From Eledone cirrhosa (lineage: Eukaryota), in the NCBI GenBank assembly GCA_964016885.1, contig OZ024742.1, positions 330,212,001-330,276,000 of the forward strand: a stretch of DNA of 64,000 bases, written 5' to 3'. The notes under the pieces were generated by a model. That model had not been told where the DNA came from. It made no database searches and saw nothing but the letters and a program-made list of their open reading frames with translations. This document shows, piece by piece, positions 16,102 through 49,229 of this stretch (its first letter is position 1; each line of letters begins with the position of its first letter). A program made the translations under genes and the position numbers.

Positions 16102-17808
16102 ATACATATATATATATATATATATATAAATATTACTCTTCTCACAAAAGAAACTAAGTTTCAACTACAAAATACCAACAATGGAAAAGTAATTATAGAT
16201 ACGTCGTTCCTATCTTATCAACTCCATCTACCACAATTCTCTTCAAATACAATCTAAAAAATATACAATGGAGTAAAGGAGAAAATACATCATTTATAAT
16301 TTACCACATAATAGTCATTAATAATTTATTCTTAATTCACTTTTTGATTGTTATAACAGTATGTTGAAGACAAGTTAAAAGGAAACGAAACTAGAAATAG
16401 ATATGTAATTTAGAATAAAGGAAAATAATACACTGAAATAAACAATCGAATTCTATTTTAGATTTAATTTACATAAGACATCATTTTCACTTTGTGACCA
16501 ATGTTATATAACATGGCAATATAATTTTATTTTTATCTAAAATACGGATGAAGCAAATATTATAAATACTATATAAAATCTAAAATGTTCGAATTTATAT
16601 ATTTGAAAACTGAAATGTAAATATATTTATGCGAAATTATAGCAAATACAGAAACATCAATGGTTTAAATACAAAACAAATGAACCGAATGTAACAATAT
16701 TTCAATGGACTTAAGATTCGAATTATCTCTATATTGCACAACTTCTTGTGTCTTTATCTGTTTATTGAGCTACAAATAGTAAGTTGGAATTAATCGATAG
16801 TAGCTTTGAAAGCCATTTGTCCGTCTATGTCATAGCTGCGATGTATTATATATGGTGAATATATTTAACTTTAAATGGTTCAGAGCAACTATCAGTAAAT
16901 AAATACCCATCATAGTTACGGACATAACGCAATGTCAAACTAATCTATTAAACTACACAGTCCAATCGAGTATTATTCATTTCATAGTTCTGAGTCTAAT
17001 TTTGTCACTGACATCACGTTTCACTATTTATTCAGCTTGAACATCATAATGAAATCATATAAAATCCACTTAGCATTCATATTCGAATATGTTGCACAGA
17101 ACATCTATTCGTGCCGTGATTTTATCATTGCATATTCTTGAATTAACTTACGTCATTCTGATTAAAGCGGTTGATTGTAGTAATAGATTCACATGTATTA
17201 TAAAATTTAGCGTACGTAAGATTCAGACTGCATTCTTCAAGGGGAGTAAAATCCAAATATTCTCCGAAACTGTATAGCACATGAAGATGACAATAATAAT
17301 ATTATTAACATTACAAAACCGCACGACGTTTATTCTACAAGATAAAATCTCAATAATACAAGGTAAATGTAGAAAAATCTGGAGGGGGCTTTCCCCTCCA
17401 ATACGCATAAAATCAGACAAAGCTACTGCTCACGATTCATAAACAATGAGATGCAGGAGACACAAAGTGACGCAGCTGAAACCAACATTAATCTGTGGAG
17501 TAACAATAATAATAATAATAATAATAATAATAATAATAATAATAATGATTTCTTTATTAACCACAAGGGTTTACATAAAGTAGACATTAAGGACAGTGCA
17601 GGACAATGCAGGACGGTACAAATGGGCATTTCTGCGTGTAAAAAAACAAAAACAGAGGATGTAACAAAAATAACAATGAAAATAACAATGAAAAATTCCC
17701 CAATAGGGGGGAGACTTCGGAGGGACATTTGTGGAGAAAGCCCAGTAAAAAGCCACAATGACCCTGACCACCAAGGCAAGTGCCCTCTCCCAGTTTTCCA
17801 CCTTTAGT

Positions 17809-20800
17809 TTACAGATATATACTCAGAGTCGGCCCATTCACTCGGGCCATTCTTGCTTCTCTCACCCATCTTTCAACAAAATGCTGGGAAGAGAGCACTT
17901 CCTTCTCTACTCTGATTTTCCTTTTCAAATGAAATTTGAAAAAGTCAATCAGAGCATCACCGAAGAGGTAAGTGCTCGTCTTCAGCCCTTTCAAACGTGT
18001 CCACCATACTATCTCTTTCGCCATGGCCACCAGACAGATAAAAACTGCCTGCCCTTCCCGGCTAAAGGAGAAGGGCGGGGCAATCCTCACGATAGACTCA
18101 GATGATAGCTGGATCCGTCCTAAACGCGACAGCAGGTGTTCGACATAAACCCACAAGTCAGCAATTTTCGGACACTGGACGAGTGCGTGCAGGACGGTTT
18201 CGTCGCCCTGCGCGCATCTCGGACATGCCCGGCTGACGGCACCTCCATGCCTGTAGAGTTTATCCCGAACTGGCAAGGTTCCTCGGTAGCACTGCCAGGC
18301 CAGAGATTTCTGGAAATTGTCCATAGGCCCTGGCCCGAAAGTTCTTCCGAAGAGATTGGCTAGTTGATTTTCGTCGACGCCTAGAGTTTCCCCAAGTACG
18401 TCGTCGCTCTTCCCCTCCACTAATCCTCTATAGAACGCCCAGGTGGAGTTTCCACCGATCACATTGCCCGATTGGTCGAGGGCTGTGAGCGCCTGAAGAC
18501 ATTCCAGTCTCCAGGCGCTCCCTCTCGGTCTTCGCTTGACCCAGGACTGCAGCTCCGTCAAGGAAACGAGCTGGGGAAAAACGCGTCTAGCAAACGGCGA
18601 CCACACCTGATCACCGTCGAGGAAGAGGTGGAGATGTCGTAGCCTGAGCGCGTGCCTGCGCATCATCAGCCACGGCATGCCCAGCCCTCCACGTAGCGGG
18701 TGTTGACAACAGATGGACCGCCTGACCATCGGAGCACGTCCCTTCCACAAAAAGCGAAAGAGCAAACGCTCCAGCGCAGTCAGGCGAGGCTTAGGACAAG
18801 GTACGACGGTTAGGCGGTAGCAGATGACAGACGCGATGTACGCGTTAGCCACCTCCGCTCGACCTTTCAGGGATAGCTTCCTCTCCGCCCATTTCTGGGT
18901 GAGAGAAGCCACCCTGCTCGTCACCTCGTCCCAGTTTTTGTCCGTCTGGAGGTCCGGACCGAACCAGACCCCTAGCAATTTAACCGGTCCGTCCGTCCAG
19001 CGCCCGACGACGCTGTTGGACGGCATGGACCTACCTCTCCAGGTGCCGAGCTGCAGGCCCACTGACTTTTCCTGGTTGATCATTGCTCCTGTCACCGCTT
19101 CGTATTCTCTTAGTGTAGTGCCGATCGCCTCGATGTGTTTGGCGTTCGACACCACTACGGTGACATCGTCCGCATATGCTGATACGGATCTTCCGCATCC
19201 TAGTTCGCGCGGGACTCCCCTCAACGTCTCCAGTTTGTGCAGTAATGGCTCGAGAGTCAATACGTACAAGAGGGACGAGAGGGGACATCCTTGGCGGACC
19301 GAGCGCATGATGTTGAACGGTTCCGACAGGTGACCGTTCACTCTCACCACAGAGCAGATGTCGCTGTGCATGGCAGCGATCCAGCCTCTGAAGACGGGCC
19401 CAAAGCCAGCCGCCCTCAGGACTGCCGCTAGGTAACGATGGTCGACCCTATCGAAAGCTTTCGACTGATCTAAATTGATCAAGGACCCACCCGTGCCAGG
19501 TTCCCTAGCTACCCTCTCTACGATGTATCGCATGAGGTGGAGGTTGTCGTGGATGGATCTGTCGGGAATGGCGCATGTCTGCGCCTCTCCCACCAGACCA
19601 CCAACGACAAGCGCCAACCTCTTTGCTAGCACCTTGGCCAAAATCTTAAACTCTGTGTTTAGCAGAGTTATGGGCCGGAAATTGTCTATGTTATCCCCCT
19701 TGTTCGGATCCTTTCTCAGCAGTGCCACCGCTCCTCGGCTCACAGAACTGGGAATTCTCCCGTTCTGTTGCCAGTTGCAGTAGACGTCCGCCAAGAGGCC
19801 TCCGAACAAGTCTGGCATCTGTACGTAAAGTTCATAGGGCAGACCATCCAAACCAGGCGATTTACCCCTTGTGCAGCCAGTCATTGCCTCCCGTACTTCA
19901 GCGGCTGTTATCGGCTTTTCGCAACACCTCGCCTCAGTGGCCGAGAGCCGCGGCAGTCCGTCGAGGTAGACACTAAAGTCCATCCCTCTACCCGGCCCCC
20001 CGCTGCCCCCGAACAGCTGAGCGAAGTGTCGCTGAAAAGCTTCACACATTTGCCCGGGATCGAGTAGCATGCGCCCGTCGTGGTCCACCAAAGACCGGAT
20101 CGTGGCATTGTTGCCACGACGCGCCTCCGCCACTCGGGCCCATTGAACGGCTTTCGTCCCCTCGTGTCTGAGAGCACGCACCCTAGCTCTGACAACGCAG
20201 CCTTCGTGCTTTGCATTGAAGAATTGGTCAAGGGCCAATTTCGCCGCAAGCACGTCGGTCGCAATGCCTTTGCTAAGCGCCTCGTCTAATTTTCTAACTA
20301 GTTCTCCCTCTGCTCTATTTTTCTCTATTGCTAAAGCCTTACTAAACCTAATCGATTCTATTCTAATCGCTCTTTTCAGAGCAAACCACCACTTGTTGTT
20401 GACGATGGCCCCCGTCAACGCCCGCTTAACTAGTTCGCTAATCCGGTCTCTGTAGGCCTTGCGCGCTGGTAAGGAGGCGTTTAGCTTCCAGTAGCCGGGT
20501 CCTCGTCTATGAAGCCTATTTAAGTCAAGCACACAGGTCACGAATTTGTGGTCCGTGTAGCTGACTATCTTGAATTGTGGACAGCCTATGCTAGACCTAT
20601 CTATTTCCCTACAAAATACTCTATCTAGATATGATCTGGATGACCCTATGCGGTTTGTCCAAGTCCACATTGGCACATTCGGGAAATCCAATCGGTACCT
20701 GTCAGACAGTTCAAAACGCCTGAGCAGGTAGGTGAGGCTCTTGCACCCTCCACCCCTATCCGCTAATCCCACACAGTCCCAGCGTGCATCTAAGATCCCG

Positions 20801-48789: not shown

Positions 48790-49209
48790 GTTACCATGGG
48801 ATTGAGCGCAGGAGACCAGATGTTGTATTAATTGAGAAAGTGAGCAAATTCTGTTGGATCATAGATATAGGTTCTCCAGCTAATAACAAGGTATGTGATT
48901 AAGGAGGAACAAGATTGATATATATGACAGGTTAGTCAGGGATTTTAAGCAGTTTTGGTCAGTGACAAAAGTGGCGGTGATACTTATAATAGTTGATGTC
49001 TTACGAAACGTTATTAAAGATGTTGATGAGTATATTAAATAAATAGGGATTGCAATACGGTTGGAACGCTTACTAAAAACGGCATTGATTTGAACAGTTC
49101 GAATATTCTAGAGGGTACTCGAAACATAAGGGGTGTTACGTTAGTTCACTGATAGTGAACAGGTAACTCTATACTACATATCCTGCGTTAGAAGCTGAAC
49201 GAAGTAGCT
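48790..49209 (+). mobile_element. R4/Dong-type LINE 3' terminal fragment (copy D, RLE domain)
   Basis: IERRRPDVVLIEKVSKFCWIIDIGSP (PD..D nuclease motif) and ..VILIIV..LLKTALI. Preceded by AAT repeats and ends in TAATAA. Confidence 0.7.
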
Positions 49210-49229
49210 ATAATAAAATACCCATCAAT

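Follow-up and report, generated by a model that had tools for sequence, protein, structure and literature searches.

A chain of oppositely oriented Tx1-type and Dong-type retrotransposons linked by (AAT)n tracts in Eledone cirrhosa

Structure of the retrotransposon chain

The window analysed here, a 64,000 nucleotide stretch of the 3.0 Gb genome of Eledone cirrhosa (assembly GCA_964016885.1, contig OZ024742.1, positions 330,212,001-330,276,000 of the forward strand), harbours at 17505-49215 a chain of four minus-strand Tx1-type long interspersed nuclear elements (LINEs), four plus-strand R4/Dong-type LINEs and four short interspersed nuclear elements (SINEs), linked by (AAT)n tracts. The Tx1-type elements, which encode an apurinic-like endonuclease (APE), read along the ATT strand of this microsatellite, and the Dong-type elements, which encode a restriction-like endonuclease (RLE), along the AAT strand, as is evident from their flanks, polarity, neighbours and clustering. 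The chain probably consists for the most part of LINEs and SINEs that inserted independently of one another at (ATT)n/(AAT)n, and is likely to have grown through the tracts left on both sides of each. The arrangement suggests that the endonucleases are specific for the repeat and that two unrelated enzymes have converged upon it. Elements were identified by Pfam, tblastn and translation, all of which agree with the initial annotation, made from the sequence alone, in the number and strand of the two kinds of LINE. The features are as follows, with ORF denoting open reading frame, RT reverse transcriptase and UTR untranslated region.

17505-17546: (AAT)14 tract; left edge of the chain, on the 3' tail side of Tx1 copy 1
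17547-23572, minus strand: Tx1-type copy 1, full length, 6,026 bp; ORF2 open at 17809-21228, ORF1 at about 21264-23357
23573-23722: (AAT)28 then (AAG)22, separating Tx1 copy 1 from Dong A at their 5' ends
23716-28578, plus strand: Dong A, full-length R4/Dong-type LINE; RT, CCHC and PD-D-K nuclease, with two stops and three frame changes
28578-28605: (TAA)9, serving Dong A as tail and Dong B as 5' flank
28606-31811, plus strand: Dong B, 5'-truncated, of a second Dong family
31812-31838: (AAT)9, tail-to-tail, common to Dong B and Tx1 copy 2
31839-37910, minus strand: Tx1-type copy 2, full length; 92% identity to copy 1 in ORF2 and at the 3' end, with another 5' UTR/ORF1 module
35822-36006, minus strand: SINE inside ORF1 of Tx1 copy 2; 19 bp target duplication (35803-35821 and 36007-36025), no tract
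37911-37941: (AAT)5 AAATGAT (AAT)3, a decayed tract between Tx1 copy 2 and Dong C
37942-39199, plus strand: Dong C, 3' fragment
39200-39214: (AAT)5, tail-to-tail, common to Dong C and Tx1 copy 3
39215-44961, minus strand: Tx1-type copy 3, decayed; ORF2 77% identical to copy 1
44962-44985: (AAT)8, SINE tail and 5' flank of Tx1 copy 3
44986-45201, minus strand: SINE; last 22 nt in register with the Tx1 3' end
45202-45231: tract of mixed TAC/(AAT)5, with the SINE head on one side and the Tx1 copy 4 tail on the other
45232-48369, minus strand: Tx1-type copy 4, old, lacking the RT region by deletion; what is left of the endonuclease is 39-53% identical to copy 1
48370-48384: degenerate tract, (AAT)3
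48385-48761, minus strand: two tandem SINEs joined without a tract, one lacking its head and the other its tail at the joint
48762-48782: (AAT)4 GAT AAT AAT tract
48785-49215, plus strand: Dong D, short 3' fragment; nuclease motif RRPDVVL..IIDI, tail only TAATAA, right end approximate

All ten AAT tracts of the initial annotation are present where it had placed them, and comprise, from left to right, 14, 28, 9, 9, 5+3, 5, 8, 5, 3 and 4 AAT units, that at 48370 being degenerate. Its statement that tracts lie at nearly every junction holds for these ten but not for the joint between the last two SINEs. The strand and tail polarity that it gave are likewise correct, but the (ATT)n tails that it assigned to the full SINEs are not universal, the SINE at 35822-36006 interrupting the ORF1 of Tx1 copy 2 without a tract; similarly, every Dong copy is on the plus strand, but the expected (TAA)n tail of Dong D is just TAATAA. 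The 5' end of Dong A, singled out as the exception to the junction rule, is none: this copy is full length, with the genomic copy L273 aligning over element positions 3-4865 at 95% identity, and its 5' end abuts (AAT)28(AAG)22. The 'two families' proposed are two unrelated kinds of LINE, each comprising several families (at least three Tx1 5' modules; Dong A and Dong B). No ribozyme was found by Rfam over 17000-50000. The sole Rfam match, to mir-592 (47217-47308), scored below the gathering threshold and sits on a short inverted duplication, and was rejected.

Tx1-type insertion at (ATT)n across the genome

Genome-wide counts were obtained by exact-pattern matching in the host genome. The Tx1 copies of the chain carry three or more 5' modules, and a 25-mer taken close to the copy 1 5' end (module 1) has 1,610 exact matches, directly upstream of which (ATT)3 and GAATG are found in 1,533 (95%). 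A tract was present at all 30 of the module 1 5' ends that were fetched, and five of the six listed exceptions keep ATT units with a changed base, the sixth having given no row. The different 5' end of copy 2 (module 2) has 1,642 exact matches, with at least three ATT units, in exact phase, at 30 of 30 loci. The reverse polarity, (AAT)3 within six bases of the module 1 5' end, occurs at a single locus genome-wide, in a head-to-head pair. Mostly non-AAT flanks or a random orientation, which the initial annotation had named in advance as grounds for giving up the idea, are not what these flanks display. By way of background, 199.8 kb of evenly spaced host DNA, used as a control, holds the (ATT)3 9-mer at 0.038% of strand positions, in 26 tracts in total, as against 37 GTT and 32 ATC tracts, neither of which is the Tx1 flank.

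Truncated copies were taken as those possessing a 3' end and starting past element position 2400, since earlier starts are mostly module breakpoints; 24 such rows, less L080 (an internal deletion) and with two new ones added, L284 (a deletion) being excluded, make 25. Their 5' joints have at least (ATT)3 in nine cases (36%), at least (CTT)6 in two, AAT in one and no tract in 12, the remaining row displaying a 16 bp duplication that starts ATTATT. Three more rows represent deletions or interruption by a Dong element, giving a corrected count of 9/22. Some Tx1 joints have one ATT unit followed by (CTT)n or (ACT)n (L093, L073), and (CTT)n lies at one of the first 100 listed 3' joints, the Tx1 3' 25-mer having 6,695 exact matches; the repeat (CTT)n/(AAG)n serves as a second target. 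Both values, 95% for full-length copies and 36% for truncated ones, exceed the 20% of flanks above which a target preference is recognised in PMC4494074.

A CR1-type LINE of the same host, the 3' motif of which has 8,217 matches, served as a control, its tail also being (ATT)n. None of the 22 truncated copies among 30 CR1 loci has at least three ATT units at the 5' joint, compared with 9/25 for Tx1 (Fisher p = 0.002), and hence a repeat-made tail is not sufficient for an ATT flank. CR1 tails themselves (L144, L313-L342) are landing sites for Tx1, SINE and Dong insertions, CR1 not being repeat-targeting.

This control bears on the main rival explanation, according to which sites are chosen by pairing of the RNA ends: the nuclease would be relaxed, only those nicks at which an AUU-bearing tail or 5' leader anneals would be completed, and the opposite polarities would follow from complementary tails rather than from convergent enzymes. 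The difference between full-length (95%) and truncated (36%) copies in exact-phase joints is in its favour, as is the requirement of SINE sites for just ATTA (see below), and annealing has precedents in the 5' joints of R2 (PMC3774820) and the internal priming of SART1 (PMC7265360). Nevertheless we consider it unlikely, given that the same-tailed CR1 scores 0/22, that some Tx1 joints pass into (CTT)n or (ACT)n beyond a lone ATT unit, where just one or two bases could pair, and that endonuclease swaps determine the target in SART and TRAS (PMC7265360).

Dong-type elements and the opposite strand

The Dong-type elements have the layout of the R4/Dong clade, with a single ORF in which an RT is followed by a CCHC motif and a PD-(D/E)xK nuclease, and no APE. 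For instance, the copy L266 has one open ORF of 1,141 aa with the motifs CRIC..H..SEC, RHD and RPDLVVVD..D, from which Pfam recovers RVT_1 only. At least 120 homologues were listed for the Dong-type protein, none of them labelled with a clade such as Dong/R4, HERO or NeSL. The proteins of Dong A and Dong B are only 25-43% alike. Both families nevertheless have a common 5' UTR start, 74-91% identical over 330-470 bp (window 23716-24180; L261-L275), without an Rfam ribozyme match. The 5' UTR of Dong A contains a plus-strand SINE 3' fragment (24510-24575), seemingly a family-wide feature, as L273 aligns through it. Three Dong A copies (L078, L146, L154) are all truncated at element position 3862, perhaps representing a short non-autonomous form or a favoured joint.

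Truncated Dong A copies, like those of Tx1, follow the rule less strictly: when they were anchored by their own 3' end, the 16 readable 5' joints comprised 12 AAT, one AAG, three with neither and no ATT; a larger Dong set (n = 27) gave 19 AAT, two AAG and again no ATT. The 5' motif common to the two families has 1,426 matches, with an AAT or AAG tract at 28 of 30 loci and the compound (AAT)n-(AAG)n form at three of the 30. The proposal that both kinds of LINE use the same microsatellite with opposite polarity consequently stands as regards flanks and orientation genome-wide, but is qualified by the truncated Tx1 copies, of which about 40% comply, and by the second target (CTT)n/(AAG)n.

The Dong half of this finding is already known in kind, PMC3812793 giving (TAA)n as the Dong target. 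PMC13282606 includes both Dong-R4 and L1-Tx1 among the elements with recent activity in Octopus vulgaris, and among molluscs R4-Dong is nearly restricted to cephalopods according to PMC10294476.

Neighbours, ages and growth of chains

Beyond the tract, 26 of 30 module 1 5' ends adjoin, by eye, either a like-oriented Tx1 or SINE tail or an oppositely oriented Dong 5' end. The sequences following 30 Dong B tails, also scored by eye, comprise 13 Tx1, five SINE and two CR1 tails in antisense, eight Dong starts in sense, one other repeat and one wrong-sense Tx1 piece. Clustering is likewise pronounced: among 99 successive Tx1 5' ends on contig C1, 16 lie within 7.1 kb of each other, all on the same strand, versus 0.53 expected. 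Tandem copies are mostly independent insertions, the partner ranking only 6th to 16th of 27 by similarity in four of five tandem pairs and one pair being mutually closest. The chain in the window is thus one long example of a common genomic structure, and the suggestion that the array feeds itself is supported by neighbours across the tracts that are mostly retroelements in the predicted orientation.

It might instead be supposed that the elements bring or make their own flanking tracts and have little preference, chains arising by passive build-up or by unequal crossing over between tracts. Long tracts do adjoin young copies, the AAG runs at Dong 5' ends look slippage-derived, one tandem pair is nearly identical and no empty site was seen. 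We find this very unlikely all the same, because the DNA past the 5' tract is not random but usually belongs to another element, whose tail or truncated end comes in a fixed orientation, because neighbours differ in family and age, and because 4/5 tandem pairs are not closest relatives.

Stops and frame changes per kb in the eight LINEs of the window are, from left to right, 0, 1.4, 4.5, 5.3, 4.3, 7.1, 7.6 and 12.5 (rho 0.93, calculated by hand, with copy 1 serving as its own reference), and tract length drops in the same direction (rho -0.91, p = 0.0002); this chain grew leftwards. Elsewhere, the upstream neighbour was older in 40/57 joints with an anchor biased for one-ended growth and in 12/26 with an anchor biased against it, 61 joints having been dropped for having too few relatives and the Dong B set having given no scored rows. 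The idea that a longer tract is kept on one side was unsupported, with medians of 10 and 11 for Tx1 (p = 0.91, n = 18) and of 18 and 10 for Dong (p = 0.25, n = 13).

An assembly artefact, with repeats collapsed or misjoined at microsatellites, would be in keeping with short-read contigs that end at tracts and with the fact that no record spans the chain. Such an origin is extremely improbable, since the eight LINE copies differ in sequence, obey a strict strand rule and have a monotone gradient of damage, and since the same joints recur at thousands of places in the genome.

The associated SINE

The last 22 nt of the SINE match the Tx1 3' end at 15 positions in an ungapped alignment counted by hand; the CR1 3' end is unlike either. 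Of 44 whole SINE copies, 14 from the control DNA included, a clear duplication of 10-20 bp outside any tract is present in 12, its upstream copy starting with ATTA in 10 and ATGA in two, in a search that fixed the downstream side only. A start at ATTA fits a cut by the Tx1 nuclease opposite this motif, and the SINE is presumably copied by Tx1 proteins in trans. It is unlike the crocodilian SINEU in ending in the last 22 nt of the LINE and in its head, which we take to be tRNA-like. SINEU prefers the same target as Tx1-Mar does and inserts in tandem, as described in PMC4494074. The SINE within Tx1 copy 2 (35803-36025 with its duplication) recurs at the same site, with the same duplication, in the module 2 ORF1 of L096, indicating that the source element already carried the SINE or that the site is a hot spot.

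Coding content and kinship of the Tx1-type elements

The ORF2 of copy 1 is open and encodes 1,139 aa with Pfam matches to the APE (PF03372), RT (PF00078) and zf-RVT (PF13966) domains. Its best relative of solved structure is human L1 ORF2p (E 1e-52, 182 bits), and the APE catalytic residues N, E, Y, D/N, D and H are all aligned and intact. ORF1 has no Pfam match, and its translation contains a single CCHC knuckle, C-X2-C-X4-H-X4-C; an ORF1 with a CCHC zinc knuckle is a feature of the Tx1 clade of the L1 group. Copy 1 is 99.3% identical to the genomic copy L198. Its ORF1 has a private in-frame stop near 22176, at which programmed read-through was considered and rejected, other copies being open there.

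Near-identical ORF2 and 3' ends bear different 5' UTR/ORF1 modules in the window (21230-23572, 35510-37910 and 42610-44961) and elsewhere (L062, L069, L098), which suggests that Tx1 subfamilies may exchange ORF1. Module breakpoints lie at element positions 2261 and 2342.

Copy 1 scores 467 and 381 bits against two relatives inserted at U2 snRNA in Keno-type sites (L350 and L347), versus 182 for human L1, and the APE elements of the chain are likely to be members of the Tx1 clade. In these two metagenome relatives an A-rich tail is joined to U2 snRNA sequence (L350:5815-5977; L347:4675-4885), in a Keno-like manner. None of 80 metagenome relatives, mostly 22-33% identical, has an ATT tract of four units.

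A model of insertion into the repeat

Following the model of target-primed reverse transcription, the Tx1 APE domain would nick the (AAT)n strand just opposite ATTA, the AUU end of the RNA would pair with the primer so released, and the duplication would result from another nick 10-20 bp further on. The Dong RLE would cut the other (ATT) strand first. Full-length Tx1 RNA may start inside the upstream tract, and so have AUU units at its 5' end, allowing the cDNA to anneal to the target in phase; this is our proposed reason for the near-uniformity of full-length joints (95%) relative to truncated ones (36%). SINE RNA would be copied by the Tx1 proteins and CR1 tails would add targets passively, and each insertion would leave tracts on both sides as targets for the next.

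A more far-reaching version can be envisaged, in which an undescribed (ATT)n-specific Tx1 lineage, with a truly sequence-specific APE and an RNA that starts in the target repeat, drives one of the commonest SINEs of its host and, with Dong elements entering from the opposite strand and CR1 as a passive donor, maintains a self-renewing pool of targets, such that chains extend from one end, with the oldest elements first and the youngest last, and mould much of the 3-Gb genome. This we regard as possible though doubtful.

Several points weigh against insertion directed by the endonucleases to the repeat. Sequence cannot separate nuclease specificity from RNA-primer pairing or selection by chromatin. 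The (ATT)n specificity of Tx1 is a strong preference and is not absolute, because 14 of the 25 truncated copies have neither an ATT nor a CTT tract and one, L213, shows reverse polarity; of truncated copies anchored solely by their own 3' end, 6/17 are at ATT. Every fetched element locus was drawn from one contig, C1, the 30 CR1 control loci all coming from its first 11 Mb, and the CR1 5' joints were placed by all-against-all alignment, some of them approximately. L002 and L003, a tandem pair differing by 0.2%, may have arisen by local duplication. An empty allele or orthologous empty site was not recovered, four runs aligned to 16300-24600 and four to 16900-17540 having given no joint that bypasses copy 1; a second organism (X4) carries the left flank and the same Tx1 family, its contig diverging from the window at 17374, and no RNA data set containing the sequence was listed. 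Finally, in a 63-row FastTree phylogeny of RT sequences that includes no named Tx1 or L1 row, the deep nodes are open and L350 and L347 are not joined to copy 1.

Relation to known targeting systems

In the literature searched, outside which lay Repbase and Dfam, where a named family may exist, neither a Tx1 specific for (ATT)n or (AAT)n nor an account of such chains was found; the initial annotation, too, knew of no (ATT)n-specific Tx1. PMC4494074 lists (TC)n, (TTC)n, (TTCC)n and (TTTC)n as targets of microsatellite-preferring Tx1 elements. Like the elements of the chain, Kibi, Koshi and the crocodilian Tx1 are APE-type LINEs of the L1/Tx1 group that prefer a short microsatellite, and the Koshi target (TTC)n is the second target of the Tx1 described here. 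Unlike Kibi and Koshi, which have (TC)n or (TTC)n as main target, the chain Tx1 has (ATT)n, with (CTT)n in just 2/25 truncated joints; its tail is the target repeat itself, and thousands of its copies stand in chains. The target thus appears new for Tx1, the overall strategy being known. Dong elements of Bombyx mori, Anopheles gambiae and Biomphalaria glabrata (R4 clade) are similarly alike in their single ORF, RT, C-terminal CCHC and PD-D-K motifs and use of (TAA)n, but here at least two divergent families have a common 5' UTR and (AAG)n is used too.

Both the convergence of APE and RLE elements and opposite orientation in one repeat are already published. Keno (Tx1, APE) and Utopia (RLE) evolved in parallel to insert into the same target, the U2 snRNA genes (PMC4640811); they likewise combine the two enzyme types on one target, but with the same 3' flank in a gene, whereas here a microsatellite is entered from opposite strands and regenerated by tails. 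TRAS and SART, which form arrays in opposite orientations in (TTAGG)n (PMC10088271), resemble the present case in that two families occupy one simple repeat, differing in that both are telomeric R1-clade APE elements with poly(A) tails in a repeat made by telomerase, not by the elements. The uniform full-length 5' joints of R2 have been explained by cDNA annealing, with 28S sequence at the 5' end of the RNA, in PMC3774820; R2 is an RLE element with a ribozyme, unlike the chain, in which Rfam shows none (17000-50000).

One base removed from the (CTT)n of Koshi, (ATT)n extends the short list of targets of sequence-preferring APE nucleases, and young open-frame copies together with the ATT-tailed CR1 as a negative control make nuclease choice and RNA-primer pairing testable on one repeat. 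The structure offers a mechanism for hot spots of transposable elements in genomes of cephalopod type, and the Tx1-type LINE is a likely partner of an abundant SINE. Elements of this sort will be overlooked or merged by insertion callers and assemblers, because both of their joints consist of microsatellite.

Sequences surrounding the chain

Runs of (AT)n are very frequent on both sides of the chain (1-17500 and 52400-59000) and absent inside it, and no LINEs of the chain families were seen in these flanking regions. A plus-strand fragment at 61450-61749, 33% like the C-terminus of Tx1 ORF2, is an older LINE remnant. A roughly 506 bp tandem repeat, its spacers being (TA)n, and a minisatellite in degenerate form occupy 6545-8510 and 14223-15300. 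Long inverted repeats of 86-98% identity are found in AT-rich DNA beside (AT)n outside the chain, at 1169-3411, 3490-4101 and 56707-58797.

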